DNA of 64,000 nt from Rhodothermales bacterium (GTDB lineage Bacteria; Bacteroidota; Rhodothermia; Rhodothermales; UBA10348): positions 207,775 to 271,774 of the forward strand of contig JANQQV010000006.1 of assembly GCA_028284865.1 (NCBI GenBank). Reading direction: 5' to 3'. Numbering within the stretch: the first letter of the stretch is position 1; every line of letters starts with the position of its first letter. A program made the translations under genes and the position numbers. Of this stretch, positions 7,036 through 63,324 are shown in pieces. The notes below the pieces were generated by a model, which saw only the letters and a list, made by a program, of their open reading frames with translations, was not told where the DNA came from and did not search any database.

Positions 7036-7077
7036 GGCGTACGGTCCGGGAAATCCGGCTCAGAGAGCGAATGCGAA

Positions 7078-7330: not shown

Positions 7331-8071
7331 ATGTTTGAATGGCTCGCCGACCCCAATGCCTGGGTGGCACTGGGTACCCTGACCGCCCTGGAAATCGTCC
7401 TGGGCGTGGACAACATCATCTTCATTTCCATTCTGGCCGGGAAGCTTCCCGAAGAGCAGCAGGCACGCGCTCGCACCATCGGGCTGGCGCTCGCGCTCAT
7501 CGGTCGGGTGGTCCTCCTGCTATCATTGGCATGGATGATGCAGCTGACCGCCCCGTTGATCGACATCCTGGGAATGGAGTTATCGGGTAGGGATCTCATC
7601 CTCATGATCGGCGGCTTGTTCTTGCTGGCCAAGGCCACCCGCGAGATCCACGACAAACTGGAGGGGGCTGAACATGGGCATGCCAATGTGGGCACTGCCA
7701 CGTTTCAAAGTGTCATCATCCAGATCCTGATCCTGGATATCGTCTTCTCCCTGGACTCGGTCATCACCGCCGTAGGGATGGTAGACCAGGTCCCTATCAT
7801 GATCACCGCCGTGGTGATTGCCATCGTGTTCATGATGTTCAGCGCGGGCGCGGTCTCACGATTCATCGAACAGCACCCGACCGTCAAGATGCTGGCCCTG
7901 GCATTCCTGCTCATGGTCGGCGTGGCATTGATTGCCGAGGGCTTCGAATTCCACATCCCGCGCGGATACATCTACTTCGCCATGGCCTTCTCGGTCTTCG
8001 TCGAGATGCTCAACATCAGGCTTCGCAAGCAAGGCCCGCCCGTTGAGCTGCGCACGCCCAAGATGCACTGA
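7331..8071 (+). CDS. TerC/Alx-family integral membrane protein
   Basis: 246 aa. TerC-type N-terminus MFEWLADPNAWVALGTLTALEIVLGVDNIIFISIL, with several hydrophobic helices. Confidence 0.9.
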   Translation: MFEWLADPNAWVALGTLTALEIVLGVDNIIFISILAGKLPEEQQARARTIGLALALIGRVVLLLSLAWMMQLTAPLIDILGMELSGRDLILMIGGLFLLAKATREIHDKLEGAEHGHANVGTATFQSVIIQILILDIVFSLDSVITAVGMVDQVPIMITAVVIAIVFMMFSAGAVSRFIEQHPTVKMLALAFLLMVGVALIAEGFEFHIPRGYIYFAMAFSVFVEMLNIRLRKQGPPVELRTPKMH

Positions 8072-8110
8072 CCGCCAGAGGGTGCACGCGCGGACCCATC
8101 CCAGGTCCGG

Positions 8111-9319: not shown

Positions 9320-9376
9320 GACGGCGCCCGGGTGTATTCTACGGGCTTGATGGGAGCTTGGCCGCCAAAATACGCT

Positions 9377-10903: not shown

Positions 10904-10936
10904 TCAGGACGTCAAGCCCTGGGATAATGGGTGGGT

Positions 10937-11725
10937 TCAGGTAGTCAGTTCGTCGTAGCGCTTTCGCAGGAGCTGGACGTCTTCCCAGGTGGGGCGTTTC
11001 CAATTCCCGTTCCGCAGCAATGCCGCAGGATGGTAGGTGACCAGTACCGGAATTCCGTGATAATCATGGAAGGTGCCGCGCATGTCCTTCAGGCTGGAAT
11101 CCTTGCCCAACAGGGACGTGCCCGAGGTGCGCCCGACACAAAGAATGAGTTTGGGCTGGATGAGGGCGATCTGCTTGTGCAGAATAGGGATGTGCGCAGC
11201 GATTTCGTCCGGTTTGGGGTCCCGGTTGTTCGGTGGGCGGCTTTTGAGAATGTTGGCGATGTAGACATCCGAACGCTCAAAGCCGATGGCCTGCAGAATC
11301 TTGGTGAGCAGTTGGCCCGCGCGGCCGACAAACGGCTCGCCTTGTTTGTCCTCGTCCGCGCCGGGAGCTTCTCCGATGACCATCAAATCGGCTTGGGGGT
11401 GTCCCACACCAAACACTGGGTTGAGGCGCGTACGATCCAGTTCAATCAGCTCGGTGGCTGCGACCCATGACTGGACATCCTCCAGCGACGTCATTCCGCG
11501 AAGCGGTGAGTCCTCGGGAATGAGCGCTTCAATTTGATCGTAGACGCTTGTAGTAGCTGAGGGCATGGGGTGAGAATCTTCTGATGGGACCGGGTCGGGT
11601 GTAGGCTCCGGTGCAGATTCATGTTCTGCTGTCAGTACGACCAGATCACCATAGAGAGCCATCTGATGCTCCAGTGCAGCACGTATGTCTTTCAGATCGT
11701 TGGACACGGAAGTTTTCCTGAGCAA
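10937..11725 (-). CDS. Uracil-DNA glycosylase, family 4
   Basis: 262 aa. Family-4 motifs [23 protein letters not shown] and HPAALLRN. Confidence 0.85.
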
Positions 11726-11846
11726 ATCACTCTGAACGGAAACGCAGAATCAGCAGAGGAAATCTACCAGCCAGCCAGCATTCTGCTCCGCCGACCTTTG
11801 CACGAGTTGCCCCCACCCTTTCAACAGCGATCGGGATGAATGGCGG

Positions 11847-13103
11847 TCAGGAGAGCGGGTCGATCGCGTCGGGGTCCGTGCCCAGCACAGCCAATTCGAT
11901 GATGGCATCCGCGACTTCGCTCTTGGGGAGCACCGGCAGATCGACTCGTTGGTCATCAGCGGCAAGCAACGTGACACGATTGGTGCCTGTCCCGAATCCG
12001 GCGCCAGCCTTCTTGGGATTGTTCAGGACGATCCAGTCCAGATTCTTGCGCTGCAGCTTGCCACGTGCATTTTCCAGACCGTTGTCCGTCTCAAGGGCGA
12101 ACCCAACGAGCAACTGGCCGTCACGCTTTCTGGACCCAAGGTCGGCCAGGATGTCGGCTGTCGGTTTCAGCGTCATGTCCGGCGAGCTGGCGTCCTTCTT
12201 GATCTTGCTCTCTGACGGACGAGCTGGCGTGAAGTCCGCGACAGCAGCCGACATGATGATGATGTCGGCGTCGGCCTGTCCATTCACGGCCGCGTGCATG
12301 TCAGCCGTGGACTCGACGTCGACGCGCCGCACGCCCTCGGGCGTCGACAGCGAAACGGGTCCGGCAATGAGGACCACATCCGCGCCGCGGCGAGCCGCGG
12401 CGCGAGCGAGCTCAAAGCCCATCGTTCCCGTCGAGTGATTCGAAATGAAACGCACCGGGTCTATGCGTTCGCGCGTGGGCCCGGCGGTAACCACGACGCG
12501 TTTACCGGCAAGTGGACCACTCGAAGAACCCGCAATGCGCGACAACAGCTCGGAAGCATGTTCGAAAATGGACTCCGGTTCGGGAAGACGCCCCTGGCCG
12601 ATCAGACCGCTAGCGAGTTCGCCATGCTCAGCTTCCATCACTTCGACACCACGCGATGAAAGGGTATCCAGGTTCGACCGAATGGCCGGATGGATATACA
12701 TGTCATGGTCCATGGCTGGACACACCATGATGGGGCAGCGAGCGGTAAGCGCGACCGCCGTCAACATGGAATCGCATGCCCCGTCGACCAGCTTTGACAG
12801 CGTCTGGGCCGTCAATGGGGCAACCAGGAACAGATCCGCCCACAGACCTAGAGCGACATGCTTGGTCCATGACCCCGCCTCGTTCTCCGGGAAGATCTCG
12901 ACATGCACTTCGTTCTCGGAGAGCGTACCCAGCGTGAGCGGCGTCACGAATCGGGATGCGTCCGGCGTCATGACGACGCGCACATCTGCTCCGGCCTTCT
13001 TGAACAGGCGCACCAGCCCTGCTGTCTTGTAGGCAGCGATCCCGCCCGTCACCCCGAGAAGGATCCGGCGTCCGGCCAGCGGTTTGTTTTCAGTCGCGGA
13101 CAT
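11847..13103 (-). CDS. coaBC: Bifunctional phosphopantothenoylcysteine decarboxylase / phosphopantothenate-cysteine ligase
   Basis: ORF 11847-13154. GVTGGIAAYK flavoprotein motif plus a C-terminal CoaB domain. Starting at Met-18 (13103) removes the overlap with gmk. Confidence 0.92.
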   Translation of the reverse strand: MSATENKPLAGRRILLGVTGGIAAYKTAGLVRLFKKAGADVRVVMTPDASRFVTPLTLGTLSENEVHVEIFPENEAGSWTKHVALGLWADLFLVAPLTAQTLSKLVDGACDSMLTAVALTARCPIMVCPAMDHDMYIHPAIRSNLDTLSSRGVEVMEAEHGELASGLIGQGRLPEPESIFEHASELLSRIAGSSSGPLAGKRVVVTAGPTRERIDPVRFISNHSTGTMGFELARAAARRGADVVLIAGPVSLSTPEGVRRVDVESTADMHAAVNGQADADIIIMSAAVADFTPARPSESKIKKDASSPDMTLKPTADILADLGSRKRDGQLLVGFALETDNGLENARGKLQRKNLDWIVLNNPKKAGAGFGTGTNRVTLLAADDQRVDLPVLPKSEVADAIIELAVLGTDPDAIDPLS

Positions 13104-28475: not shown

Positions 28476-29597
28476 TCAGGCGTACGTATTGAGCATCACC
28501 GGCATGATGAGCATCATCATCGTTTCGCCTTCCTTCTGGTTGGCGGGCGTGACGACACCAGCACGGTTGGGAGAGGAGAATTCGAAGAGGACATCTTCCG
28601 CGTCCACATTCGAGAGGACTTCCGTCAGGTACGTCGCATTGAATCCAATGACGAGCGCATCACCATCGTAGTCGCAAGAGACTGTTTCGTTGGCCGCGCT
28701 GGCACGCTCGAGGTCCTCGGCAGAAATGACCACCTTGTCGGACTCGACCGAAAGACGGATCTGATTCGTCATCGTCGATGAGTAGAGGGCCACGCGCTTG
28801 ACCGCGGCGAGCATCGTGTCCTTGTTGGCTGTCATCTTCTTGTCGTTGTCGACCGGGATGACTGCCTGGTAATTCGGATACGGCTCATCGATGAGGCGGG
28901 CGAGTACGCGCGAGTCGCCGAAGTCGAATCCGGCGTATCCACTGTCTACAGTCAGCGTGCACTCATCGTCCGTGGCCACCTTGGCAGCCAAGGAAACAGC
29001 TTTTTCGGGGACGATGAAGTCCATGTCCTCGGTGGCGCCCAGGTTTTCAAGCTGCAGCTTGACAAGGCGATGACCGTCTGTGGCCACGGCTTTGCCGGAC
29101 TCGCGACCGATCTGGAAATAGATCCCCATCATGGCCGGGCGCAGGGCATCTCGGCTCACGGCGAAGCTCGTCTTCGTGATGGCCCGCTTGAGCAGCGCAC
29201 CATCGGTCTGGACCGAGACGGATTCGCTGAGCTCGGGAAGCGCCGGATAATCGGCCCCATCGTGGCCCACCATCTTGTAGTGACCCTTGTCGGTGTCGAG
29301 CGCTACGTTGAACTCGGTATCAGCGGCAAAACGAACCGGTACGTTCGGAAGGGCTCGCAACGTGTCGACCAGGCGCTTGGCCGGAACGGCCACACGCGAA
29401 GGACCATCCACCTCGACGGCAACGTCGATCTTCTGGACGATGGAGATTTCCAGATCCGTTGCGCTCAAGCGCAGACGGCCGGCTTCTTCCTCGAAAAGGA
29501 TGCACTCCAGGATCGGAAGCGTGCTTTTCGTGGGGACAGCCCCGGAAACAGTTTGAAGAGCCTTGAGAAGTTCAGCGCTTGAAGCGGCGAATTTCAT
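28476..29597 (-). CDS. dnaN: DNA polymerase III beta sliding clamp
   Basis: 373 aa. MKFAASSAELLKALQTVSGAVPTKSTLPILECILFE... is typical DnaN, and the gene lies directly downstream of dnaA. Confidence 0.95.
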   Translation of the reverse strand: MKFAASSAELLKALQTVSGAVPTKSTLPILECILFEEEAGRLRLSATDLEISIVQKIDVAVEVDGPSRVAVPAKRLVDTLRALPNVPVRFAADTEFNVALDTDKGHYKMVGHDGADYPALPELSESVSVQTDGALLKRAITKTSFAVSRDALRPAMMGIYFQIGRESGKAVATDGHRLVKLQLENLGATEDMDFIVPEKAVSLAAKVATDDECTLTVDSGYAGFDFGDSRVLARLIDEPYPNYQAVIPVDNDKKMTANKDTMLAAVKRVALYSSTMTNQIRLSVESDKVVISAEDLERASAANETVSCDYDGDALVIGFNATYLTEVLSNVDAEDVLFEFSSPNRAGVVTPANQKEGETMMMLIMPVMLNTYA

Positions 29598-29674
29598 GAT
29601 GGTTACCGACGGTTTATCAGGATTCTCGAAGATACCAAACCGGGGGTACCGATTGCCACCGCCCGAAGCCCTTT

Positions 29675-31219
29675 TTACCGGCTTCTCAGGTCGATTTTGT
29701 TGGAGATCTCTTCGATGATCTCGGCAAACTTCGGATCGGTGTCCATCTGGTTCTCCACGCTCATGTTGGCGTGGATCACAGTGGAATGGTCGCGCCCACC
29801 GAAATGGAGCCCGATAGTCTTCAAGGAGTGCTGCGTGAGGCGCTTGCAGAAGTACATGGCCACCTGACGCGCCTGCACGACCTCGCGCTTGCGGGTCTTG
29901 GCTCGGACCAGGTCCTCTTCAATACCGAAATACTCACACACGAGCCGTTGAATCTGCTCGATGGTCAGCGTGACGCGGGTATCTGTTATCAGATCGCGCA
30001 GGACATCCTTTGCCAGCGAAAGATCGACCTCGCGCTTGTGCAGCGTGCCGTGCGCCAGAAGTCGGATCAAGGCGCCTTCGAGCTCGCGAATGTTCGACTT
30101 GATGTTGTGTGCGATGAACTCAAAAATGTCATCGGAGATATCGATCCCATCCTCGACCGCCTTGCGGCGAAGGATCGCCATCCGGGTTTCGAAGTCGGGC
30201 GGCTGCAAGTCCGCAGAGAGGCCCCACTGGAATCGGGAGAGCAATCGCTCTTCGATTCCTTTGATGTCGCGTGGCGGGCGATCGGCCGAAAGCACGATCT
30301 GCTTGCCGCTCTGGTGGAGCGCATTGAAGATGTGGAAGAACTCTTCCTGTGTCTTCTCTTTGCCACTGAAGAATTGGACGTCGTCGATGACCAGCAGGTC
30401 GATCTGGCGATAGAACAGCGAGAAGTCGCTTACCCGGTTGTTCTGGATAGCCTGGACGAACTCATTGGTGAAGCGCTCACTCGAAACATACAGGACCGAT
30501 GCATCCGGTCGATTGGCCAGCAAGTAGTTGCCGATGGCCTGGATCAGGTGGGTCTTGCCGAGTCCAACGCCTCCATAAAGCAGGAATGGATTGAAGCTCG
30601 TGCCGCCGGGCTGCTGGGAGATGGCAAGTGAGGCGGAGCGGGCCAGGCGATTGCAATCGCCTTCGATGAAGCGATCGAAGGTGTAATTCGGATTCAGATG
30701 TGACTCGACCTGGACCTTCTGGATACCTGGAATCACAAAAGGATTCGAGATCCCCGCATGGTTGGTGGCCGCGGGCTGGGCGACGAAACCACCTGCGACG
30801 GCATGACCGTTTCCGAAACCGGTTCGTGAAAATCCGGAGCTGGCAGGGGACTGGGCACTGCGACCGGCGGCCGGTGTCGGTTGGGGTTCATTGGCCGGCT
30901 GGCGAGCGGGCAACTTCATCACCGTACCGTCGAATCCGCTCTCCTCATCGTCCTGTTCAATCACGACGTCGTAAAAAAGTCGGCCGTTCGGACCGAGTAC
31001 GTTCGTGATCGTCTTTCGCAGCAGTCCGAAATAGTGCTCTTCCAGCCACTCGAAGTAGAATCGGCTCGGGAGCTGAACCGTCAATTTGACCGTCTCGCCG
31101 TCCTCTTCCAGGCGCAGTGCCTTAAGGGGAGAAAACCACGTGCGAAAGCTCTGCCCACTGACATTGTCTCGAATGATTTCGAGGCACTCTTTCCAGACCG
31201 ATTCGGCTGTCTGTGTCAT
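29675..31219 (-). CDS. dnaA: Chromosomal replication initiator DnaA
   Basis: 514 aa. Walker A GGVGLGKTHL, box VII SADRPP, and the C-terminal DNA-binding signature IGLHFGGRDHSTVIHA. Confidence 0.97.
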   Translation of the reverse strand: MTQTAESVWKECLEIIRDNVSGQSFRTWFSPLKALRLEEDGETVKLTVQLPSRFYFEWLEEHYFGLLRKTITNVLGPNGRLFYDVVIEQDDEESGFDGTVMKLPARQPANEPQPTPAAGRSAQSPASSGFSRTGFGNGHAVAGGFVAQPAATNHAGISNPFVIPGIQKVQVESHLNPNYTFDRFIEGDCNRLARSASLAISQQPGGTSFNPFLLYGGVGLGKTHLIQAIGNYLLANRPDASVLYVSSERFTNEFVQAIQNNRVSDFSLFYRQIDLLVIDDVQFFSGKEKTQEEFFHIFNALHQSGKQIVLSADRPPRDIKGIEERLLSRFQWGLSADLQPPDFETRMAILRRKAVEDGIDISDDIFEFIAHNIKSNIRELEGALIRLLAHGTLHKREVDLSLAKDVLRDLITDTRVTLTIEQIQRLVCEYFGIEEDLVRAKTRKREVVQARQVAMYFCKRLTQHSLKTIGLHFGGRDHSTVIHANMSVENQMDTDPKFAEIIEEISNKIDLRSR

Positions 31220-36833: not shown

Positions 36834-38366
36834 ATGTCTGAAGGCCCCAGAAGGAGCTACATCACCGGAATCGATCTGACCTCGCGCGCGCAAGCGGAGC
36901 GAGCAGAGGCCCACACCAAGAAATCGTTTACCGAGCCTGACCCTCCGCTACCAGCAGCAACGGTTGACACGTTGCCCGACAAGGTGCGCGAGGCCGTCCG
37001 CTCCATCGGCTGGACCAAGTTGATGCCGGTCCAGGAAAAGGCCGTTCCGTACCTGCTTGAAGGACGGGACATGATTGTCCAGTCACGGACGGGATCCGGT
37101 AAAACCGGAGGCTTCCTGCTGCCGCTGTTCAATCTGCTTGATGAGGATCTGATGGCCGCGCAGGCGCTGGTGCTTTCGCCGACGCGCGAACTGGCCCGGC
37201 AGATCCATGAGGAGTTTGACAAGCTGCGTGGAGACCACCCGTTTTCGAGTGTGGTCATCTACGGTGGGGTCAAATACGAGCCCCAGATCCGCGCCCTGAA
37301 GAACGGAGCGCAGGTCATCATCGGTACGCCTGGTCGCATCCTGGACCATATTCAGCAGGGCCGATTGGTGCTGGATGATCTCAAGATGCTCGTTTTCGAC
37401 GAGGCCGATGAGATGCTCTCGATGGGTTTCTATCCGGACATGCTCAAGCTGGAGCGCTACTTGCCGCGCGATCGTCAGTCGTGCATGTTCAGCGCGACGA
37501 TGCCGAAGCGGGTTCGCTACCTGTCCAAGAAATTTCTGGATGATCCCGGTTTCCTGTCACTGAGCAGTGGAAACGTGAGTGTCGATGCCATTGAGCACCG
37601 CTACTACCGGGTCGATCGCATGGCCAAGGATCGCATACTGGCCCGTCTGATCGAAATGGAGAATCCGGACTCGGCCATCATCTTCGCCAATACCAAGCGG
37701 GATGTGGAGTACCTAGGCCAGTTCCTCCAGAATTTCGGCTACGACGCTGACAGCATCTCGGGCGACCTCTCCCAGCGGGCGCGCGAGAAGGTGATGAAGA
37801 AGATTCGCGATGGTCGACTCCGCTTCCTGGTTGCCACGGACGTGGCGGCCCGCGGCATCGACATCACCGATCTGAGTCACGTGATCCAGTATGACATTCC
37901 CCAGGACCCAGAGTACTATGTACACCGGGCCGGGCGGACAGCGCGTGCCGGCAAGACCGGGACGGCCATCACGCTGATCACGATTGAAGAACAACGTAAC
38001 CTGCTGGCGCTCGGTCAGCGCTATTCGATTCCCATGACGCAACACGATGTGCCCGATGAAAAAGACGTTGAACAACGCGTAACGGAGCGATTGACGGTCG
38101 TCCTGGAATCCGCCTTCCGCGACAAATCGAATATGGAAAAGGAGCGCCTCCAGCGCTTCAAAGGATTGGTCAGCGAGCTGGCCAATGAAGAACCTGAGCT
38201 GCTGGCCATGCTGCTGGACAATCTCTATCACGAGACCCTGCATAAGGTGCAGCAGGTCGATGACGTGTCCGATGCTTCGGACGATGCGCATCACCACGAC
38301 GGAGATGGCTCCAGACCTCGACGCAATAAGGGAGGTCGGGGACGCAACCACAATCGCCGTAGGTAA
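36834..38366 (+). CDS. DEAD-box ATP-dependent RNA helicase with a basic RG-rich tail
   Basis: 510 aa. Motif I SRTGSGKT, then DEAD, SAT and HRAGRTARAG. C-terminal tail is RPRRNKGGRGRNHNRRR. Confidence 0.92.
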   Translation: MSEGPRRSYITGIDLTSRAQAERAEAHTKKSFTEPDPPLPAATVDTLPDKVREAVRSIGWTKLMPVQEKAVPYLLEGRDMIVQSRTGSGKTGGFLLPLFNLLDEDLMAAQALVLSPTRELARQIHEEFDKLRGDHPFSSVVIYGGVKYEPQIRALKNGAQVIIGTPGRILDHIQQGRLVLDDLKMLVFDEADEMLSMGFYPDMLKLERYLPRDRQSCMFSATMPKRVRYLSKKFLDDPGFLSLSSGNVSVDAIEHRYYRVDRMAKDRILARLIEMENPDSAIIFANTKRDVEYLGQFLQNFGYDADSISGDLSQRAREKVMKKIRDGRLRFLVATDVAARGIDITDLSHVIQYDIPQDPEYYVHRAGRTARAGKTGTAITLITIEEQRNLLALGQRYSIPMTQHDVPDEKDVEQRVTERLTVVLESAFRDKSNMEKERLQRFKGLVSELANEEPELLAMLLDNLYHETLHKVQQVDDVSDASDDAHHHDGDGSRPRRNKGGRGRNHNRRR

Positions 38367-38430
38367 TTGCCCCGTCCGACAGCGGGCAGGTGCATCCTAC
38401 ATTACCGGACTTCAACCAACCACCGGAATC

Positions 38431-40068
38431 ATGAAACGCCTGTTCGCCATCGCCCTTCTTGCGGCGATGTTGCCTGTAGCCACTGTCCACGCTCAGCTGG
38501 CTACGGCTGATGATGTCACCACGGAAGACTATCGCATCTACCGCAGCGATGGCACACCCGCCACCTGGCAGGATGTCTTTGATTCGCTCGGTGGTGCCGA
38601 TGTGGTTTTTGTCGGGGAATTGCACAATGACCCCGTTTCCCACTACGTCGAAGAAAGAGTGTTTGAAGGGTGGTTTGAGGCCCACGGTCATGCTGCCGCG
38701 CTCAGTCTCGAGATGTTTGCCCGCGATGTGCAGTACATCGTCGACGAATACCTGGCCGGTCACATCACGGAAAACCATTTCCAGCAGTCCAGCAGCCCCT
38801 GGTCGAATTATGAAACGGACTATCGCCCGTTGGTGGAGTTCGCTCGCGAGAATGGGCTGGCGGTGATTGCGGCCAATGCGCCGCGTCGCTATGCCAACAT
38901 GGTTTCGAGAAATGGTCGGATGGCGCTTCGCTCCCTGTCTGATCAGGCACGGAGTTACCTGGCCCCGCTTCCGTTTGCTGCGGCATCGGAGCGGTATGAA
39001 GAGCAGTGGGATCAGGTGATGGCCGAGGCAATGGCGGCGATGCGTGCTGATGCGGAAGAGGAAAGTGGACCGGCCCCTGAGATCGACAATCGGCACCACG
39101 GTGAGAGCGAAGAGATGGACCACTCGGAGATGGACCATGGAAGTATGGACCACGGCGATATGAGTCATGGCGATATGAATCATGGCGATATGAGTCATGG
39201 CGAGATGGACCACTCCGAAATGAACCACGAGGAAATGGATCATGGCGAAATGGACCATTCCGGGATGGATCACTCGGGCATGAACCACGGCGACGGTCAC
39301 GAGATGGGCGAAGGCGGCCATTCCTGCCCCAAGATGGAAGAAGGCGGCGAGTGCAAGATGATGGAAGGCGGCATGGAAGGCATGGAGCACGGTGAAGGCG
39401 GCCATTCCTGTGCGATGATGGAAGAGGGAGGCGAATGCAAGATGATGGAGGGCATGGAGGGCATGGACCACTCGGGTATGGATCACGGCGATGGCCACGA
39501 GATGGGCGAAGAAGAGATGGATCACTCAAGCATGGACCATGAGGCGATGCGCGAGATGCATCATCCTGACATGACCGACGAGGAGTACGCCAAAATGAAG
39601 GCTGAGAAGAAGGAAGGCATGAGCCACGAGGGAATGGATCACGGTGACATGGACCATGGCGACATGGACCACTCTGACATGGATCACGGCGAAATGGACC
39701 ACGGCGATATGGATCATTCGGAGATGAACCATGCTGCGCCGGCCACCCAGCCCCAACACGGCGGTGGCTCCATGCTCGACGCTCAGTCCCTGTGGGATGC
39801 CACGATGGCCTGGTCGATTGCTGAGCATATGACCCGCAATCCAGGTGCAAAGGTGGCGCACATGGTCGGCGGGTTTCACGTTGAAACCGGCACCGGCACG
39901 CCTGAGCACCTCATGCAGTACCGTCCCGGAACGCGCATGCTGATCATCTCCGTTCAGAGCGTGGACGACCCAACATCCTTTGACCTCGAAGAGCACACCG
40001 GCCTCGGCGATTTCGTCGTGCTTGGTGATGCCGCCTTACCCAGGACCTACGAGACACGGACCCGCTGA
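38431..40068 (+). CDS. Periplasmic ChaN/Tiki-fold (haem-binding-uptake family-like) protein carrying a large Met/His-rich insertion
   Basis: ORF 38185-40068. The signal peptide starts at ATG 38431 (MKRLFAIALLAAMLPVATVHAQ). ChaN-like blocks are VVFVGELHNDPVSH, LSLEMF and AANAPRR, with the C-terminal block DATMAWSIAEH...GGFHVE. The two halves are separated by ~240 aa of repeats. Confidence 0.75.
   Translation: MKRLFAIALLAAMLPVATVHAQLATADDVTTEDYRIYRSDGTPATWQDVFDSLGGADVVFVGELHNDPVSHYVEERVFEGWFEAHGHAAALSLEMFARDVQYIVDEYLAGHITENHFQQSSSPWSNYETDYRPLVEFARENGLAVIAANAPRRYANMVSRNGRMALRSLSDQARSYLAPLPFAAASERYEEQWDQVMAEAMAAMRADAEEESGPAPEIDNRHHGESEEMDHSEMDHGSMDHGDMSHGDMNHGDMSHGEMDHSEMNHEEMDHGEMDHSGMDHSGMNHGDGHEMGEGGHSCPKMEEGGECKMMEGGMEGMEHGEGGHSCAMMEEGGECKMMEGMEGMDHSGMDHGDGHEMGEEEMDHSSMDHEAMREMHHPDMTDEEYAKMKAEKKEGMSHEGMDHGDMDHGDMDHSDMDHGEMDHGDMDHSEMNHAAPATQPQHGGGSMLDAQSLWDATMAWSIAEHMTRNPGAKVAHMVGGFHVETGTGTPEHLMQYRPGTRMLIISVQSVDDPTSFDLEEHTGLGDFVVLGDAALPRTYETRTR
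39046..39771 (+). repeat. In-frame coding repeat region: about two dozen M-[DNS]-H-[GSE]-x pentapeptide units and two duplicated CX8C cassettes
   Basis: Translation: EEMDHSEMDHGSMDHGDMSHGDMNHGDMSHGEMDHSEMNH...GGHSCPKMEEGGECKMMEG...GGHSCAMMEEGGECKMMEG...MDHGDMDHGDMDHSDMDHGEMDHGDMDHSEMNH. Imperfect DNA-level duplications lie around 39268-39372 and 39391-39511. Confidence 0.85.
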
Positions 40069-40089: not shown

Positions 40090-41793
40090 ATGCAACGTAT
40101 TGCAACACTCCTGACCGTCCTGGCTGCCATTCTCATCATCAATGGATGCGGCAGCTCATCTACCGAATTCGAATGTGCCGCATTCCTGGCCGAAGAGGGA
40201 TCCATGATTCAGATTGATGTCGATATGACGGAAGGAAGCGACTACGGTCGCGAACTGCTGTCTCAGTACACGTCTTTTGAGCTGACAACGGACCTCAGCG
40301 TGCTCAGCGAGAACGAGTGCCGGATGCTGCCACACCTGTTTGCTGCTGGAGATCAGATGGAATCCATCTTCTGGAAGCAGGCCTATGGCGACCGGGATGC
40401 GCTGCTCGCATCGATCGATGATCCAGCGCTGCGCGAGTATGCCAAGATCAACTACGGACCATGGGATCGCATTGGTGGAAACGCCCCGTTCATTGATGGC
40501 GTCGGCGACAAGCCGGCGGGCGCCAACATGTATCCGCGTGACATGACGCGCGAAGAGTTTGAAGCAGCAGCGGCTGCGGATCCGACGCTTGCCGACCTCT
40601 ACACCGTGGTAGTGCGCGATGCGGATGAAACGCTGAAGGCTATTCCGTACCACGAAGCGTTCGCCGAGGAAATGCAGCGGGCCTCTGAAGAGCTGCTGGC
40701 CGCTGCCGAGTATGCCGATGACCCCGGTTTGAAGGAGTACCTGACGCTTCGAGCAGAAGCCCTGCTGACGTCGGACTACCAGGCCAGCGACATGGCTTGG
40801 ATGGACATGAAGAACAACCGGATCGAAGTCGTGGTCGGTCCAATCGAGACGTACGAAGACGCTCTGTTCGGCTACAAGGCCGCTGCGGAAACGTTTGTGC
40901 TCGTCAAGGACATGTCCTGGAGCGAACGCCTTTCCCGCTACGCTCAGCTGCTTCCTGCTCTCCAGGAAGGATTGCCCGTTCCGGACGAATACAAGCAGGA
41001 AACACCAGGCACAGACTCTGACCTGAACGCCTACGACGCCATTTACTATGCCGGCGATACAAACGCGGGCTCCAAGACTATCGCGATCAACCTGCCCAAC
41101 GATGAGGAAGTCCAGCTGGCCAAGGGCACGCGCCGCCTTCAGCTGAAGAATTCGATGCAGGCCAAGTTCGACAAGATCCTGGTGCCGATTTCCGAGGTAC
41201 TGATTGCTGAGGACCAGCGTGAGTTCATCACGTTTGACGCCTTCTTCGGCAACACGATGTTCCACGAGGTCGCGCATGGATTGGGCATCAAGAACACGCT
41301 CGATGGGTCCAATACGGTCCGCGGCGCCCTGAAAGAGCATGCTTCAGCCCTTGAAGAAGGGAAAGCCGACATCCTGGGGCTCTACATGGTTTCCGAGCTG
41401 ATGGATTCTGGCGAACTGGAAGGAGACATCCGCGACAACATGGTGACCTTCCTGGCGGGCATCTTCCGAAGCGTTCGGTTCGGGGCTTCGAGCGCGCATG
41501 GCCGCGCCAACATGATCCGCTTCAACTACTTCCTGGAGATGGGCGCTTTCACCCGCGATGAGGCGACCGGTACGTACAGCGCTGACTACGACAAGATGAT
41601 CGAAGCCATGAATGCGCTCACGGAGAAGATTCTTCGCTTCCAGGGTGATGGGGACTACGAAGGAGTCGCAGCATTCGTGGAAGAGTATGCGCGCGTACCG
41701 CAGCAGCTTCAGACCGATCTGGATCGACTCGCTGATGCCGGGATACCCGTCGATATCGTGTTCGAACAAGGTCTTGCCGTCGTAGGACGATGA
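40090..41793 (+). CDS. Zinc metallopeptidase-like lipoprotein (DPP3/M49-like)
   Basis: 567 aa. Lipobox ILIINGCGS. HExxH (FHEVAHGLG) followed by EEGKADILG, reminiscent of the second M49 motif. Family assignment is tentative. Confidence 0.65.
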   Translation: MQRIATLLTVLAAILIINGCGSSSTEFECAAFLAEEGSMIQIDVDMTEGSDYGRELLSQYTSFELTTDLSVLSENECRMLPHLFAAGDQMESIFWKQAYGDRDALLASIDDPALREYAKINYGPWDRIGGNAPFIDGVGDKPAGANMYPRDMTREEFEAAAAADPTLADLYTVVVRDADETLKAIPYHEAFAEEMQRASEELLAAAEYADDPGLKEYLTLRAEALLTSDYQASDMAWMDMKNNRIEVVVGPIETYEDALFGYKAAAETFVLVKDMSWSERLSRYAQLLPALQEGLPVPDEYKQETPGTDSDLNAYDAIYYAGDTNAGSKTIAINLPNDEEVQLAKGTRRLQLKNSMQAKFDKILVPISEVLIAEDQREFITFDAFFGNTMFHEVAHGLGIKNTLDGSNTVRGALKEHASALEEGKADILGLYMVSELMDSGELEGDIRDNMVTFLAGIFRSVRFGASSAHGRANMIRFNYFLEMGAFTRDEATGTYSADYDKMIEAMNALTEKILRFQGDGDYEGVAAFVEEYARVPQQLQTDLDRLADAGIPVDIVFEQGLAVVGR

Positions 41794-42347
41794 ATCGTGG
41801 TCTCACAGCTGCGCTGATACTCTTCGTTATCTTTGCGACGGGTTGTCAGTCGCAGACCGAACAGGTTGATACGGGGCCGGCCGGAACGGCCGGCCCCGAC
41901 CCCGTTTGGACATCAACGCATGATGTGGCTTGGGACATCGTTGCGGCGTCTGATTTCGTGACGCTGATCACCCTCGACGCAGCGGGCCAACCGCAAGCGC
42001 GCATGCTGGAAGCCATCCCGCCTGATTCGGGTCAGTTCAACGTGTGGATGGGGACGAACGTGAACAGCGCCAAGGTGCAGGAAATCAATAACGACCCGCG
42101 CGCCACACTCTACTACCAAAGACGCGACAACTCCGGGTATGTCACGTTACGCGGCCGCGCGGACATCGTGGATGATCCTGTGCTGAAGGAGAAGTACTGG
42201 CGGCCTCACTGGACCGCATTCTACCCGGATCCCGAGACCATGTACGTCCTGATCCACTTCACACCCGAGAACGGAGAAGTAGTGAGTCTCTCTCAGGGGA
42301 TTCGGGGCGACTCACTGACCTGGGCCGCCCCCGAATTTGGGTTCTGA
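41790..42347 (+). CDS. Pyridoxamine 5'-phosphate oxidase-fold (split-barrel, general stress protein 26-like) lipoprotein
   Basis: 185 aa. Its ATG overlaps the upstream stop (ATGA). Lipobox IFATGCQS. PNPOx-family pattern ...ATLYYQRRDNSGYVTLRGRADIVDDPVLKEKYW. Confidence 0.75.
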   Translation: MNRGLTAALILFVIFATGCQSQTEQVDTGPAGTAGPDPVWTSTHDVAWDIVAASDFVTLITLDAAGQPQARMLEAIPPDSGQFNVWMGTNVNSAKVQEINNDPRATLYYQRRDNSGYVTLRGRADIVDDPVLKEKYWRPHWTAFYPDPETMYVLIHFTPENGEVVSLSQGIRGDSLTWAAPEFGF

Positions 42348-57552: not shown

Positions 57553-59124
57553 TCAAGCTCCAGCGCGCGGGCGCAACGTCATCACCGGGAGAATCATTTC
57601 CTCCATCGAAATCCCGCCATGTTGCATGGTATCCCGGTACTTGTTCTGATACCGGTTGTAGTTGGTCGGGTAGACGAAGTAATAGTCTTCCTTGGCGATG
57701 ATGAAGTTGGTATTGCGGTGATCAGCAGGAAGTCCATATGTGGCTGGATCCTTGACGAACACAGCATGGCGCTCGTCGCACTTCAGGCTTTTGCCGTACT
57801 TGTACCGCAGCGCCGTGGACGTTTCGCGATCGCCGACTACCTTCGTGTCCTTCAGACTGCGGATGGCACCATGGTCGGTCGTGATGACGATCGTGCAATC
57901 GGTCTCCGCCAGCTGCTGCATGGCCTGGAACAGCCAGGAATGCTCGAACCAGGTTCGGGTCAATGCACGATAGGCCCGTTCGTCGGGAGCGATTTCTTTA
58001 AGCACGGCCGAATCCGAACGGCTGTGCGCCAGGATGTCCACGAAGTTGACGACCACTGCGCTCAGATCGCTCTGAAGCAGGTCATGGACCGAGGCCTGGA
58101 ATTCGCGTCCATCCTTCGTTCCAATCAGCTTGTCGTAGCGAACCCGCGCCGAGATATGTCGGCGTCCCAGCAAGTCATTGAGGAACTGCTCTTCGTTGCG
58201 GTTGCGACTGTGCTCATCGTCTTCGCCCTGTGCCCAGATGCGCGGATAACGCTCAGCCAGATCAGCCGGCAAGAGCCCCGAGAAGATGGAGTTTCTGGAA
58301 TAGGGCGTCGCCGTGGGCAGGATGGAGTAGTGGTAGTCCCGCTCTACGGTGAAAAGCGGAGCAAGCAAGCGTTCGAGCTCAAGCCACTGGTCCCAGCGCA
58401 TGCAGTCGATCACGAAGAAAATGACCGGCTTCTTCTGTTCCAGGGCAGGGATCACCCATCGCGGGATGACTTCATGCGAAAGCGCTGGTCGGTCTTCGTC
58501 AGGGGCACTGTCCACACGTGCGATCCAGTCGGGATACTCGGATTCGACGTATTTGCAGAAGGCGCGGTTCGCTTCTTGGGCCTGGTCTTCAAACACCTGC
58601 CGAACGCCTTCGTCCGAGTCCAGTCCCACGTCATACCGGATCAGTCTCTGATACAGCTCGACCCATTCACGGTGATCCATGGGGTTCATGAGCGAGGCCG
58701 TGATCTCGCCAAAGGACTGGAGGTAGTTCTCCGAGGCTTTCTCGGCTTCGATACGGCGCCCGTCCAAAATGCGCTTGCACGTGAGCAGCACCTGGCTTGG
58801 ATTGACGGGCTTGGTCAGGTAGTCGCTGATCTTCCCGCCAAGCGCTTCTTCCATGATGCGCTCTTCCTCGCTCTTGGTGATCATCACCACGGGGATTTCG
58901 GCGCTGAAATCCTTGATGGCTGTCAGCGTTTCTAGTCCGCCCATGCCGGGCATCTGTTCGTCCAGAAGAACCAGGTCACAAGCCCCGGCGCGGACCTGCT
59001 CCAGCGCGTCTGTTCCATTCGTCACACTCGTGACTTGATACCCACGCGATTCCAGGAAAAGGATGTGGGGCTTGAGCAGATCGATCTCGTCGTCGGCCCA
59101 GAGTATGCGGGAGTGTGTTGCCAT
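57553..59124 (-). CDS. porX: PorX-type response regulator: receiver domain fused to a PglZ/alkaline-phosphatase-like domain
   Basis: ORF 57553-59208. The receiver domain (ILWADDEIDLL...LVLLDEQMPGMGG) begins just after Met-29 (59124). The rest is PglZ-like (FFVIDCMRWDQW..., ITTDHG). Confidence 0.85.
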   Translation of the reverse strand: MATHSRILWADDEIDLLKPHILFLESRGYQVTSVTNGTDALEQVRAGACDLVLLDEQMPGMGGLETLTAIKDFSAEIPVVMITKSEEERIMEEALGGKISDYLTKPVNPSQVLLTCKRILDGRRIEAEKASENYLQSFGEITASLMNPMDHREWVELYQRLIRYDVGLDSDEGVRQVFEDQAQEANRAFCKYVESEYPDWIARVDSAPDEDRPALSHEVIPRWVIPALEQKKPVIFFVIDCMRWDQWLELERLLAPLFTVERDYHYSILPTATPYSRNSIFSGLLPADLAERYPRIWAQGEDDEHSRNRNEEQFLNDLLGRRHISARVRYDKLIGTKDGREFQASVHDLLQSDLSAVVVNFVDILAHSRSDSAVLKEIAPDERAYRALTRTWFEHSWLFQAMQQLAETDCTIVITTDHGAIRSLKDTKVVGDRETSTALRYKYGKSLKCDERHAVFVKDPATYGLPADHRNTNFIIAKEDYYFVYPTNYNRYQNKYRDTMQHGGISMEEMILPVMTLRPRAGA

Positions 59125-59356
59125 TCGATTCCGGATTTCGTCCTCAGGTTGGGAAGATGTGGTAGCGAGGGTCGGAATGTCGGATGGGCTGGTGGAAAGG
59201 AAGCCCATATACCGTTGCTTGGTGTGTTTTGTTCAAGTCGCGACGCAAGGGTTTGGCGTGAGGGTTATGCCTGAGTCATTCCGTTGCTGCAGACGGAACG
59301 ACTCATTGCGTCGTCGGGTAGTATCTGACCGTTTCATTTCACTCCACGCCGCTGCC

Positions 59357-59863
59357 ATGAAGTCTCGCACGCTCGACGCCGTCAACAATCAGATCCAGGC
59401 TGAATTCCAGTCCGCGTACATCTATTTGGCCATGTCGGCACGCTTTGAGGACATGAAGATGAGCGGCGCCGCGAACTGGATGCGGATCCAGTGGCAAGAA
59501 GAGACGGCGCATGCCATGAAGCTGTATGACCATCTCATTCGCCGCGGAGAATCGCCTGTTCTGCAGACGATCGACAAACCAGAAGTCTCTTTCGAGTCGG
59601 CTTTGGATGCGTTCGAGCGGGTCCTCGAACACGAGCGCCATGTAACGCACCTCATCCATTCGCTCTACGAAGTCGCCGTCGAAGAGAAGGACTACGCGCT
59701 GCAGACGCTGCTGCACTGGTTCATCGATGAACAGGTGGAAGAAGAGGAGAACGCCGAGGCGATCATCGACAGTCTTCGACTGGCTGGCGAGTCGGGTCAG
59801 GGCCTTTTCCTGGTCGACCGCGAGCTTGGTCAGCGTGCGCCCGAGGAAGAAGAGGACGAATAG
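59357..59863 (+). CDS. ftn: Non-haem ferritin
   Basis: ORF 59063-59863. The ferritin sequence starts at ATG 59357: MKSRTLDAVNNQIQAEFQSAYIYLAMSARF...EETAHAMKLYDH. Confidence 0.9.
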   Translation: MKSRTLDAVNNQIQAEFQSAYIYLAMSARFEDMKMSGAANWMRIQWQEETAHAMKLYDHLIRRGESPVLQTIDKPEVSFESALDAFERVLEHERHVTHLIHSLYEVAVEEKDYALQTLLHWFIDEQVEEEENAEAIIDSLRLAGESGQGLFLVDRELGQRAPEEEEDE

Positions 59864-59985: not shown

Positions 59986-60633
59986 ATGACGCCCCCTTCC
60001 GACCTGATTCCCTCATTCGATCTTGCCAGCGAGACCGAAAAGGCCATTTTTCAGGCCGCCCTGGAGGTGTTCTCGCGCAAAGGCAAAGACGGAGCGCGCA
60101 TGCAGGAGATCGCCGACCAAGCAGGCATCAACAAGGCCATGTTGCACTACTACTTTCGCAGCAAGGACCTCCTGTACACATCGGTCTTCGCCCACGTCAT
60201 GAGCAGTTTCTTCTCCAAGCTGGAGAGCGTCATGGCCAAGCCCGGACCCTTTCTAGACCGACTGGAGGAAATGGTCGGGGTCTACATCGACATGCATGCC
60301 GCCCAGCCTGAAGTGGCTCGACTCTGGGTTCAGGAGAATCTGAATGGCGCGCCTGTGGCGCGCCAGATTCTGCAGCAGGGATTGCAGACAGGTGCAGGTC
60401 CGGGACCGCACATTCTGCTGGAGCGAGTTCGAAAGGCTGTTGACGACGGGGAGCTCCAACCGGTAGAGCCCATCCAGCTGATGATCAGCATTCTCGGCAT
60501 GACCGTCATGTTCTTCATCAGTCAGCCAACCATGACCGCGTTGGATCCGGCCATCTCCGCGGATACAGCAGCCTTCCTGAATCGTCGCAAACAACACATC
60601 ATCCAGGTACTCAGACATGGGATCTCGCAGTAG
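59986..60633 (+). CDS. TetR/AcrR-family transcriptional regulator
   Basis: 215 aa. N-terminal HTH AALEVFSRKGKDGARMQEIADQAGINKAMLHYYFRSKDLLY. Confidence 0.9.
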   Translation: MTPPSDLIPSFDLASETEKAIFQAALEVFSRKGKDGARMQEIADQAGINKAMLHYYFRSKDLLYTSVFAHVMSSFFSKLESVMAKPGPFLDRLEEMVGVYIDMHAAQPEVARLWVQENLNGAPVARQILQQGLQTGAGPGPHILLERVRKAVDDGELQPVEPIQLMISILGMTVMFFISQPTMTALDPAISADTAAFLNRRKQHIIQVLRHGISQ

Positions 60634-60634
60634 C

Positions 60635-62149
60635 ATGGTTTCTCGTTCGCGGTGGATCGACATCGGGGCGATGGTCCTGGTGATGCTGGGACTTCAGGCG
60701 TGCAGCATGACGCCTTCCATCACCCATCCCGATACGGCCGAAACGCTGCCTGAGCAGTTCGATGGGAATCACATCGAGCCTGAAGGTGCATCGATGGGGG
60801 TAACCATTGTCGCCTCGGATGAAAGCGTGGCGCAGTGGTGGCAGGAATGGGGAGATGATCGATTGAATCGGTTGGTCGACTCCGTACTCGCGGCCAATCT
60901 CGACCTGCGCATGGCGGCCAGTCGTGTGCTGGAAGTGCAGGCCAACCACCGGATCACGCGCTCGGCGCAGCTTCCCGCTGTGCAAGCTTCGGTTGACGGA
61001 TCCCGGCAAAGCACACCGACAAATGCCGGCGCTACCGGAGGGTTTTCAAAATCCATCCCGGGCTTTCCCGAACGATTCGACGTGGAGACGTATTCGGCGT
61101 CGCTGGGTCTGGCCTGGGAGCTTGACTTCTGGGGCAAGGCACGCGCCGGATCACGCGCCGCACTGGCGCAGGTGTTGGCTACGGAAGCGGACTTCGAGGC
61201 CGCGCGGATAGGCATCATTTCCGAGACCATATCGGCCTGGTTCGAATTGATGGACCTCCAGGAGCAGACGGACCTGGCTGACGACCAGATCGACCTGCTC
61301 GAAGAGCGCCTTGAAGTGACGCGCGATCGGTACCGACGAGGACTGGTCACGTCCTTTGAATGGTATGCCTTGCAGCAGCAAGTCGACGAAGCGCGAGCCA
61401 CGCGTCCGTTGCTCGATGCGCAGATCGTGGCGGCGCGAGGTCGGTTGGCGGTCCTACTGGGAGGCACGGCGTCAACCGTAGCAGACTTCACGGGGCCGGA
61501 GGGCGCGCCGCTGGCCTCTGGAGCGCATATCCCCGATGAGCTGCCTTCCGAGCTGATCAAGGCCCGACCGGATGTCATGGCGGCAGCGGCGCGCCTGGAG
61601 GCCGCTCGTCAAGCCATCGGTGTACGCCGCGCCGAACAGTTTCCATCGTTCTCCCTGACGGCTTCAGGAGGTACGCAGAGTTCTCAGTTGGCTGACCTGG
61701 TCAACACATCGACCCAGCGATTCTGGTTGTTCGGTGGCGCCCTGACCGCGCCCGTTTTCGCCTCTGGTGCTCGCCGGGCTGCCGTTCGAGCAGCCTGGGC
61801 TCAGTACGAACAGGCTGCTGCTGCCTACGAAAAAACCGTTCTATCTGCCTTCCAGGATGTCTCGGCCTCGCTGGCTGTCTTTTCCGCAGAAGAGCAGCGC
61901 GTCCAGGCCGTCGTCAGCGCCTATCAGACAGCGCGTGCTTCGCATGTGACGGCACGTGACCGCTACCTGCGTGGCGTCGGCACCTATGTGATCCTGGTCG
62001 ATGCTCGACTCAATGAACTTCGAACCCGGAATGCACTCTCTTCCGCCATTCGATCGGCCGCGCTGGCCCGTCTGAATGTGTATCGCTCCATAGGAGGAGC
62101 CTGGGCCTCCAGCCCGGACACTCCCTCTTCCACCGCCATCAACTCCTGA
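60635..62149 (+). CDS. Efflux outer-membrane factor lipoprotein (NodT/TolC family)
   Basis: ORF 60617-62149. Lipobox MLGLQACS. Two tandem OEP repeats. The start could be 60617 or 60635. Confidence 0.88.
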   Translation: MVSRSRWIDIGAMVLVMLGLQACSMTPSITHPDTAETLPEQFDGNHIEPEGASMGVTIVASDESVAQWWQEWGDDRLNRLVDSVLAANLDLRMAASRVLEVQANHRITRSAQLPAVQASVDGSRQSTPTNAGATGGFSKSIPGFPERFDVETYSASLGLAWELDFWGKARAGSRAALAQVLATEADFEAARIGIISETISAWFELMDLQEQTDLADDQIDLLEERLEVTRDRYRRGLVTSFEWYALQQQVDEARATRPLLDAQIVAARGRLAVLLGGTASTVADFTGPEGAPLASGAHIPDELPSELIKARPDVMAAAARLEAARQAIGVRRAEQFPSFSLTASGGTQSSQLADLVNTSTQRFWLFGGALTAPVFASGARRAAVRAAWAQYEQAAAAYEKTVLSAFQDVSASLAVFSAEEQRVQAVVSAYQTARASHVTARDRYLRGVGTYVILVDARLNELRTRNALSSAIRSAALARLNVYRSIGGAWASSPDTPSSTAINS

Positions 62150-62154
62150 TCGAA

Positions 62155-63324
62155 ATGTCCCGATTCTCAAGATTCAAACCCTTCCTGATCGGTCTGGGCA
62201 TTCTGGCCATAGGCGTTGTCGGACTGATCATCCTGGTGTCGATGCGTCCCGAGCCTCCTCGTGAGGAACGGGTCACCCTGGCCCCGATTGTCCAGATAGA
62301 GCAATCACAGGCTGCCACGGGTCCGCTTATCGTTTCCGGATCAGGAAACGTCGCTTCTGATAGACAGGTGCTTCTGTCCGCCGAGGTTGCAGGCCGCATC
62401 GCTTGGGTATCGCCTCGATTTGTCACCGGAGGAACGTTTGCCGCGGGCGAAGTGATAGCCCGGATCGACAGCACGGATTACGCCAATGCCGTAGCCATGG
62501 CGCGGGCCGAGTGGACCGCCCGGAAAGTGGACGCACTGATGGCCCGAGAGGAATCAACCGTTGCCCGTGATGAATGGGCACGCCTGCGCGCTCGGGATGC
62601 GGATCTGGATCCACCTGAGGCCGGCGAGCTTGGCGTCATGCTCTTCAGGGAACCGCAAGTCCGCATGGCAGACGCCGCGGTGGAAGCGGCCAAAGCTCGA
62701 CTCGATGATGCACAGGCCCGGCTGGATCGCACAGCTATCCGTGCACCTTTCTCCGGTCAGATCCTCACGAAACAGGCTGAGTTGGGGCAAGTCATGGCTC
62801 CCGGGGTTGGGCTGGCAGCATTCCAGTCGACGGCAGCGGCAGAAGTCGCCGTCCCGCTTCGTCTGGACCAGATCAGCCTTCTGGAAGGAGTGGAGCGTCT
62901 TGGAAACGGACGCAGCCTGAACGCCACCATTCGTTCGGCTTCTCAGAACAGCGAGACGACCTGGGCTGCCCGCATCGTCCGCAGCGAAGGATCTCTCGAT
63001 CCGGCAACGCGCACGCTGCGCGTTGTAGCTCGAGTCGCCAATCCGATGGCTCTGGATCCCCCGCTTTTGATGGGCTCGTTTGTGACGGTTCATATCGAGG
63101 GCCAGTCTTTGGAAGGCACGACTCGGATTCCGCGCGAGGCCTTGCGTGATGATGACAAGGTCTGGGTCGTCCAGGATGATGTCTTGAGTATCCGCGACGT
63201 CCAGGTCCTGGCCGAAGACGAGGGAGTCGTCTATGTCTCGGAAGGGCTGACGCCCGGAGAGCATGTGGTGACATCCGCTCTGTCGGTCGTGACCGAAGGC
63301 ATGACCATCCGGCGACCTGAATAA
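62155..63324 (+). CDS. Efflux RND periplasmic adaptor (membrane fusion protein)
   Basis: 389 aa. N-terminal TM anchor, coiled-coil hairpin, and HlyD/AcrA-like barrel segments. Confidence 0.9.
   Translation: MSRFSRFKPFLIGLGILAIGVVGLIILVSMRPEPPREERVTLAPIVQIEQSQAATGPLIVSGSGNVASDRQVLLSAEVAGRIAWVSPRFVTGGTFAAGEVIARIDSTDYANAVAMARAEWTARKVDALMAREESTVARDEWARLRARDADLDPPEAGELGVMLFREPQVRMADAAVEAAKARLDDAQARLDRTAIRAPFSGQILTKQAELGQVMAPGVGLAAFQSTAAAEVAVPLRLDQISLLEGVERLGNGRSLNATIRSASQNSETTWAARIVRSEGSLDPATRTLRVVARVANPMALDPPLLMGSFVTVHIEGQSLEGTTRIPREALRDDDKVWVVQDDVLSIRDVQVLAEDEGVVYVSEGLTPGEHVVTSALSVVTEGMTIRRPE

Follow-up and report, generated by a model that had tools for sequence, protein, structure and literature searches.

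The protein treated here finds its best structural match in ChaN of Campylobacter jejuni, which binds haem (PMC3417520). Active enzymes of the related TIKI superfamily carry a 2His/2Glu motif, composed of an E-x-H element, a Glu about 30 residues further on and a C-terminal His, and Tiki itself is metal-dependent (PMC6254334). A second set of described systems consists of His/Met-rich regions that handle soft metals: SilE is a disordered protein that takes up six Ag+ per chain and folds on binding (PMC5008109), His/Met residues in the N-terminal domain of PcoB are required for Cu efflux (PMC12509749), and His/Met peptides of CopI bind Zn much more weakly than Cu (PMC13308877). Disordered Met/His regions of this kind, including that of CueO, are an emerging theme of periplasmic copper biology, so far on dedicated copper proteins. 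Here we describe a 64-kb stretch of DNA from a Rhodothermales bacterium (GCA_028284865.1, contig JANQQV010000006.1, positions 207,775 to 271,774; "the window"), which encodes a ChaN-family protein whose domain is interrupted by a long disordered insertion built from Met/His pentapeptides. We consider it moderately probable that this insertion is a periplasmic loop with many binding sites for Cu(I)/Cu(II), which would serve as a buffer or capture antenna on the ChaN scaffold.

The sequences flanking the insertion form one ChaN/TIKI domain. PF04187 (Cofac_haem_bdg/ChaN) matches them in two separate stretches (E = 1.8e-51; 175.6 bits at a cut-off of 27.7), and an AlphaFold2 (AF2) model built on 107 homologues rebuilds a single domain from both, with per-residue confidence (pLDDT) above 90 at amino acids (aa) 30-212 and 444-540 and below 50 for most of aa 213-443. 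The original prediction, which had been made from the sequence alone, had assigned the flanks to ChaN and had named both comparisons as checks; both bear it out, the repeats being a low-confidence excursion from the fold. The loop leaves the domain between two long helices (187-211 and 445-469). When the model was compared with the PDB by Foldseek, C. jejuni ChaN (2G5G) ranked first (probability 1.00; TM score 0.75 on the target); RRSP, the erythromycin esterase EreC, BcR135, HopBA1 and PMT came next, which are likewise TIKI-superfamily folds. At the sequence level the family profile retrieved 2G5G with 8.6e-14; phmmer with the window protein alone gave no match among PDB sequences, and no NCBIfam family was found for it. 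Invariant among the 107 homologues are G62-E63-x-H65, E94 and N149-x-P151-R152-R153 in the N-terminal part and Q452, W455-D456, H477 and G480-x-F482-H483 in the C-terminal part, which include all equivalents of the 2His/2Glu motif (E63-L-H65, E94, and H483). Because C. jejuni ChaN also retains these residues in the family-profile alignment to 2G5G, their presence is no proof of catalysis; judged by its sequence, the ChaN core could have hydrolase activity, bind haem, or do both.

Translation of the open reading frame (ORF) agrees exactly with the exported protein of 545 aa quoted in the original prediction. Its signal peptide is of the signal peptidase I type, ends in VHA before Q and contains neither Cys nor a lipobox, and the product is thus predicted to be a Sec-exported, soluble periplasmic protein and no lipoprotein. 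Homologues begin at the same MKRLF as the window protein, which makes a longer ORF from an upstream ATG at 38185 improbable. Two ORFs of 451 and 361 aa span the repeat region in antisense (38170-39525 and 38765-39850, both on the minus strand); their products are His/Val-rich or Pro/Ser/Arg-rich translations of the repeat complement, and they are almost certainly non-genes.

The insertion accounts for 46% of the mature protein; it is the region first singled out (39046-39771, corresponding to aa 206-447). Motifs and composition were counted over aa 206-456 (251 aa). Met and His together represent 30% of these residues (41 Met, 34 His) versus 8% elsewhere in the mature protein, 72 Asp and Glu stand against 9 Lys and Arg, and hydrophobic or aromatic residues are scarce (1 Tyr, 1 Trp, 2 Leu, and 1 Ile). 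M-x-H units number 26 in the insert, H-x-x-M motifs 22 and C-x8-C motifs two; these three kinds are confined to it within the protein. M-x-x-x-x-M is present 24 times. About 24 pentapeptide units had been estimated initially, with 12 in a row at the start and seven or eight at the end; the count is slightly higher, and the two uninterrupted runs comprise 12 and 8 units (Table 1). The predicted central module order A-B-B'-A' with two CX8C cassettes was found as described. A and A' read MDHSGM(N/D)HGDGHEMGE and share 94% of their amino acids and 88% of their nucleotides (nt; 39265-39312 versus 39463-39510). B and B' (aa 295-313 and 323-341) read GGHSC(PK/AM)MEEGGECKMMEG, with the general form GGHSCxxMEEGGECKMMEG, and are about 85% identical at the nt level by direct reading. 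The only confidently modeled segment of the insert is a helical hairpin (helices 370-377 and 383-398; pLDDT 80-88), which corresponds to a conserved module of the form ..AMRExHHPDMSDEEYxKMKAEK...

Table 1. Features of the ChaN locus and its downstream neighbors, in window coordinates.
Feature	Position	Strand	Basis
ChaN-family ORF	38431-40068	+	translation, 545 aa
Sec signal peptide, aa 1-21, MKRLFAIALLAAMLPVATVHA followed by Q	38431..38493	+	read from translation
N-terminal part of ChaN/TIKI domain, aa 22-212	38494..39066	+	PF04187 stretch 50-206 (profile positions 2-161); pLDDT >90
Disordered Met/His/Asp/Glu-rich insertion, aa 213-443	39067..39759	+	pLDDT <50 outside hairpin; composition; motif counts
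First run, 12 consecutive M-[D/N/S]-H-[G/S/E]-x pentapeptides, aa 229-288	39115..39294	+	
Central A-B-B'-A' block	39265..39510	+	B and B' each with a Met-flanked CX8C
Helical-hairpin module in the insertion, aa 363-399, ..AMREMHHPDMTDEEYAKMKAEKKEG..	39517..39627	+	AF2 model; homologue alignment
Second run, 8 consecutive MxHxx pentapeptides, aa 397-436	39619..39738	+	
C-terminal part of ChaN/TIKI domain, aa 444-545 and stop codon	39760..40068	+	second PF04187 stretch; pLDDT >90
M49 (dipeptidyl peptidase III)-like metallopeptidase, candidate lipobox	40090..41793	+	PF03571, E = 3e-15
PNPOx-like split-barrel protein, signal peptide and candidate lipobox FATGC	41790..42347	+	PF16242, PF01243

Tandem Repeats Finder reports a period of 15 nt with 75-82% identity between units, and its His positions are encoded by CAC and CAT in alternation, with Met and His retained in each unit. 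This low DNA identity, together with the synonymous His codons, indicates that the units are old and have been maintained by selection on the protein, and for the same reasons recent slippage or assembly collapse was rejected as their origin. The reading frame is unbroken across the 726 nt of the repeat region, and the GC content of the insert (57.5%) is similar to that of the flanks (59.2%) and of the window (58.7%). Moreover, run SRR20820731 was assembled independently by Logan, and one of the resulting contigs matches the window at 100% identity over 7472 bp that include the whole gene; the mis-assembly of the repeats that had been raised as a concern is thereby very unlikely.

A protein homology search yielded 2630 relatives, and loop statistics were derived from the 82 best parsed hits, as clusters at 90% identity. 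Among these, the loop varies between 12 and 264 aa at one and the same site (median 118) and reaches at least 100 aa in 49; Cys cassettes occur in 10 and the hairpin motif in 27, and the window protein has the highest MxH count. As the original prediction had anticipated, the insertion is thus lineage-specific and variable in length. A broader survey recovered 3973 relatives among 1.84 billion cluster representatives, most of which have 290-390 aa and no large loop. Genes with and without the insert share the block dnaA(-)-yceD-rpmF-plsX-fabH-fabD-fabG-DEAD-box helicase-ChaN-M49-like peptidase; because of this synteny we regard them as orthologues at a core locus near oriC. A comparison of the close relatives P0008 and P0015 reveals indels of 5 and 10 aa, which are whole units. 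Orthologues with short loops (P0052, P0064) have an acidic Ala/Asp/Glu linker without Met/His, and the loops of two others (P0079, P0084) consist of PPGHPRP repeats. Taken together, the orthologues show that an acidic disordered loop already present has expanded in place as 5-aa units were gained and lost, and the earlier idea of a module grafted onto the fold has to be replaced by growth of a loop that was already there. An origin of the insert from a mobile metal-resistance island was likewise rejected, on the grounds of the conserved synteny near oriC and of a GC content that matches flanks and window. Other members of the family carry different additions: one protein (P0134) combines the ChaN domain with a C-terminal LolA-like domain, and another (P0179) has a similar C-terminal extension.

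Besides the motif content and the described systems, two observations speak for copper. Firstly, metagenome DNA was scanned for sequence encoding the double unit M[DN]HG[DE]M[DN]HG, which yielded 78 host ORFs. None of these is a ChaN homologue, and at least 27 of the 78 are copper proteins, with the Pfam families PCuAC (10), multicopper oxidase (7), CusB-type HlyD with HMBD (5), CopB (2), CusF (2) and P-type ATPase (1); DUF305 (3) and only a few non-copper families were found besides. In the host proteins the motif is located in N-terminal, internal or C-terminal tails. Since the double unit thus sits mainly on periplasmic copper proteins, the inference of copper is strengthened. Secondly, related ChaN subclades have filled the same loop with other soft ligands, namely MMHHGEGGMM repeats and CCTCDC in P0095, four M-C-P-x-C cassettes of the type MCP(H/R)C in P0124, and CKC, CANC, and CPHC in P0110. 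This convergence of Met, His and Cys at one loop points to a thiophilic ion, for which Cu(I) is the obvious periplasmic candidate. When the 115 aa of the central insert were searched by themselves for homologues, no match scored, probably owing to composition filtering.

In the loops of P0124, P0110, P0095, and P0073, Cys-rich cassettes or MMHHGEGG/MMQQGEGG repeats fill the available space. The metagenomes also contain small free-standing proteins of related composition. A Met/His-rich ORF of 100 aa (..SEMDHGDMGHGSMDHGEMDHGKMDHD..SHHDH) occurs in seven unrelated contigs (L091, L100, L102, L109, L118, L131, and L151); its copies are 99-100% identical by alignment and have no Pfam match, and the product may be a small SilE/PcoE-like periplasmic protein. 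Another contig (L114:119-628, plus strand) encodes 170 aa with Cys cassettes (..GCSCMSGEGDGEMSCKMHGEG..) and MDHGE repeats, which recalls the B module of the window protein beside its MxH units.

From these data we infer that the loop binds metal, that the metal is copper, and how the loop might work. In this lineage, duplication of five-residue units has lengthened one surface loop to a disordered polymer of about 230 residues, in which Met thioethers, His imidazoles and Cys pairs, spaced as MxH, HxxM, and MxxxxM, would supply the ligands. Some 20 or more Cu(I) sites of low to moderate affinity could be formed in this way, and the abundant Asp and Glu might assist in binding Cu(II). The protein would then buffer periplasmic copper, or capture it in the manner of an antenna, through many sites tethered to the ChaN scaffold of a family linked to TonB-dependent haem/iron uptake, the loop serving either bulk copper buffering or the protection or feeding of the ChaN domain.

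Several observations weigh against copper as the ligand. No gene of the cop, cus, pco, sil or cueR type was detected in the 64-kb window or beside the orthologues; the ChaN gene is placed in a conserved housekeeping block near oriC, and its locus does not have the make-up of an operon for copper resistance or homeostasis. Of the 78 motif-bearing ORFs, about half have no Pfam match, and a few are cytochrome or EB_dh haem proteins. The scanned motif was, moreover, already known from copper proteins, and the association was determined without a control motif. The richness in Asp, Glu, and His would be equally compatible with Zn(II), Ni(II), Co(II) or Fe, and the length variation among orthologues could in part reflect neutral drift of a low-complexity loop.

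The divalent metals are the subject of the alternative that survives best, although we regard it as rather unlikely. In this case the insert would be a capture loop for Zn, Ni, Co or Mn, comparable to that of ZnuA, and would feed either the 2His/2Glu site of the protein itself or a co-transcribed M49 zinc peptidase. Its 34 His and 72 Asp/Glu residues would be appropriate, a disordered periplasmic loop of variable length follows the same design logic as in ZnuA, and the 2His/2Glu residues (E63, H65, E94, and H483) are invariant in a fold whose namesake Tiki depends on metal (PMC6254334). The gene neighborhood is also in agreement: the M49-like gene starts 21 nt downstream of the ChaN gene, and this adjacency is kept even in a relative of 39% identity (L086). 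Its product has the candidate lipobox INGC (..IINGC..), the pentapeptide zinc motif HEVAH, which matches HEXXH, instead of the classical HEXXGH, and EEGKAD. No terminator was found between the two genes in a terminator scan, and because the start of the following PNPOx-like gene overlaps the M49 stop, the three genes probably form one operon. The PNPOx-like gene is present in three related loci (L002, L082, and L083) and replaced by a sulfatase in a fourth (L084); an exported member of this normally cytoplasmic flavin/haem-degrading fold family is unusual. As sigma-70 consensus promoters are inapplicable to the host phylum, the promoter scan was uninformative, and by reading, the 64-nt spacer upstream of the ChaN gene shows no obvious palindrome of the Fur or CueR type. 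Several points speak against divalent metals. Met is a poor ligand of Zn and Ni and a hallmark of periplasmic Cu(I) sites. In the insert it is as abundant as His (41 versus 34) and strictly conserved per unit, the metagenomic hosts of the motif are copper proteins and not zinc or nickel proteins, and the loops of the sister clades use CxxC and MM motifs. The CopI His/Met peptide likewise binds Zn far more weakly than Cu (PMC13308877).

A copper-binding loop also has to be weighed against an extension for haem or iron capture, in which His/Met pairs would act as axial ligands and pass haem on to the haem site of the ChaN domain. His/Met is a common axial pair in bacterial haem carriers. The link of the scaffold family to haem and iron, already claimed in the original prediction, is supported by its relatives. 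Insert-less homologues from Acidobacteria that share 46-49% identity with the flanks are encoded immediately upstream of a haem oxygenase and a TonB receptor (L050, L057, and L070), others directly after a TonB receptor (L034, L048, and L060), the receptors beside these Acidobacteria homologues being of the CarboxypepD_reg type, and one protein (P0156) consists of a ChaN domain fused to a C-terminal Peripla_BP_2, a binding protein of the haem/siderophore type. The two arrangements in Acidobacteria look like compact putative haem-uptake modules (about 7900-12150 in the first three loci and 5460-8900 in the other three). The family member from C. jejuni binds haem (PMC3417520; title of PDB entry 2G5G), and PNPOx-like and ferritin-like proteins are encoded downstream of the window gene. 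Nonetheless, we judge haem capture by the loop to be improbable. Its single Tyr and Trp, two Leu and one Ile in 251 aa are too few hydrophobic and aromatic residues for shielding a porphyrin, the motif is overwhelmingly found on copper proteins, and the CxxC-rich loops of the sister clades do not point to haem. In this lineage, furthermore, the gene is not located beside a haem oxygenase or a haem-type receptor: no haem/iron uptake cluster was seen around the window ChaN locus, where the neighbor is the M49-like peptidase. The nearest TonB receptor lies at a distance of 6.8 kb, and its candidacy as an orthologue of the receptors at the haem loci was rejected because the similarity is only generic.

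Equally doubtful is the notion that the loop holds no ligand at all and is a low-complexity expansion, acting as a sacrificial Met-rich antioxidant or as an entropic spacer whose composition drifts by slippage. It is favored by the disorder of the loop in the AF2 model, by the missing dedicated metal gene context, and by the range of loops (12-264 aa) beside conserved flanks, some of which are acidic without Met/His (P0052, P0064) or composed of PPGHPRP (P0079, P0084). Drift, however, is difficult to reconcile with Met and His being invariant at positions 1 and 3 of the unit over 26 synonymously diverged copies, with a hairpin module and Cys cassettes conserved in many orthologues, or with soft-ligand enrichment having arisen repeatedly and independently at the same loop; an insert that amounts to 46% of the mature protein has also been retained in at least 49 clusters. 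Finally, tandem repeats are easily mis-assembled and the genome is a metagenome-type assembly, but a chimeric or mis-sized repeat is scarcely conceivable given the identical independent contig over 7472 bp, units whose divergence (75-82% identity in DNA) renders k-mers mostly unique, the intact frame over 726 nt and similar inserts in dozens of related assemblies.

The window also contains dnaN, dnaA and dnaB (28479-31219 and 9380-10903, minus strand); because these genes are present and dnaA is divergent from yceD-rpmF-plsX-fabHDG, it spans the chromosomal origin region. Further genes near the ChaN locus encode a ferritin-like protein, an esterase, HtpG, and a TonB receptor. A second ferritin-like gene (59063-59863, plus strand) forms an ORF of 266 aa that is probably over-extended, the true start likely being a Met at about codon 99 (MKSRTLDAV..). 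At the window edge, a TetR regulator, an outer-membrane efflux protein and a membrane-fusion protein of the HlyD/CusB type (59986-63324, plus strand) mark the start of a resistance-nodulation-division efflux operon. At the opposite end lies an S8 subtilase of 1656 aa with a CarboxypepD_reg domain (962-5932, minus strand). The only Rfam match in the window is one tRNA.

The window protein carries one of the largest Met/His arrays seen (26 units plus Cys cassettes), and it does so within a haem/iron-linked family and in a core chromosomal block instead of a resistance island. If the loop binds copper, its orthologues, with loops of 12 to 264 residues, would form a tractable natural series in which the dependence of capacity and affinity on repeat number could be examined, and a hitherto unrecognized link between the handling of copper and of haem/iron would be indicated in an abundant order of marine and saline bacteria. 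A further-reading version of the copper model is conceivable, albeit unlikely: copper loading of the loop might control or protect access to, or activity of, a haem-handling or hydrolytic ChaN domain, making the protein a copper-responsive switch or a Cys-poor periplasmic "metallothionein" with 20 or more Cu ions. In Rhodothermales, copper status would then be coupled to the processing of peptides or the acquisition of haem/iron, and the repeated invention of Met/His, MM, and CxxC loops would mark a selected, general device for crosstalk between copper and haem. In databases this variety is hidden, as the proteins with inserts of 100 aa or more bear only the generic names "ChaN family lipoprotein" or "uncharacterized iron-regulated protein"; the former label covers Met/His loops as well as Peripla_BP_2 and LolA-like fusions.

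How far the combination is new can be judged against four described systems. The original prediction did not recognize the fusion as described, and this stands insofar as the literature on ChaN/PF04187 proteins yielded no description of a Met/His-rich insertion and database names are generic; it has to be qualified, as the architecture itself is common in Rhodothermales-type metagenomes. With C. jejuni ChaN (Cj0178, 2G5G) the window protein shares a PF04187 score above the gathering threshold, the best structural match (TM 0.75), the GExH, E, R, and GxxH motifs, and relatives linked to TonB and haem genes. In contrast to this lipoprotein, it has no lipobox, contains 230 aa of Met/His insertion that ChaN lacks, aligns with only 9% identity in Foldseek, and is encoded beside an M49-like peptidase outside any haem/iron uptake cluster. 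Zinc-binding proteins of the ZnuA type resemble it in that a folded, metal-related periplasmic protein carries a flexible loop, acidic and rich in His, whose length varies between lineages. Their loop, however, lacks Met and Cys, comprises tens of residues, belongs to a cluster A-1 substrate-binding scaffold and serves zinc. The "molecular sponge" SilE/PcoE is closer in chemistry, SilE being disordered, rich in His and Met, equipped with motifs of the HxxM/MxxH type and able to bind many ions per chain (PMC5008109). Homology to SilE/PcoE was not found, as the Pfam scan (E ≤ 0.01) gave only PF04187, and SilE differs in being a free-standing protein of 143 aa in a resistance operon, with motifs of 15 instead of five residues. 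The Met/His regions of copper proteins (P. syringae CopA/CopB, E. coli PcoA/PcoB, CueO, CopI, and the tails of PCuAC, CusB, and CusF) constitute a motif class and not a homologous family, to which the insert can be assigned by its motifs, disorder and signal peptide. It shares with them the MDHSxM/MxHxxM ligand chemistry, the periplasmic location and the variable length, and the exact double unit M[DN]HG[DE]M[DN]HG is found on these families in metagenomes. By this analogy, the chemistry of the insert would be that of a known class of disordered copper-binding regions. The host, however, is a ChaN/TIKI fold instead of a cupredoxin, β-barrel or membrane-fusion protein, the array is an internal loop where theirs are mostly terminal tails, and with its 26 units it is far larger and resides outside a cop, pco or cus operon.

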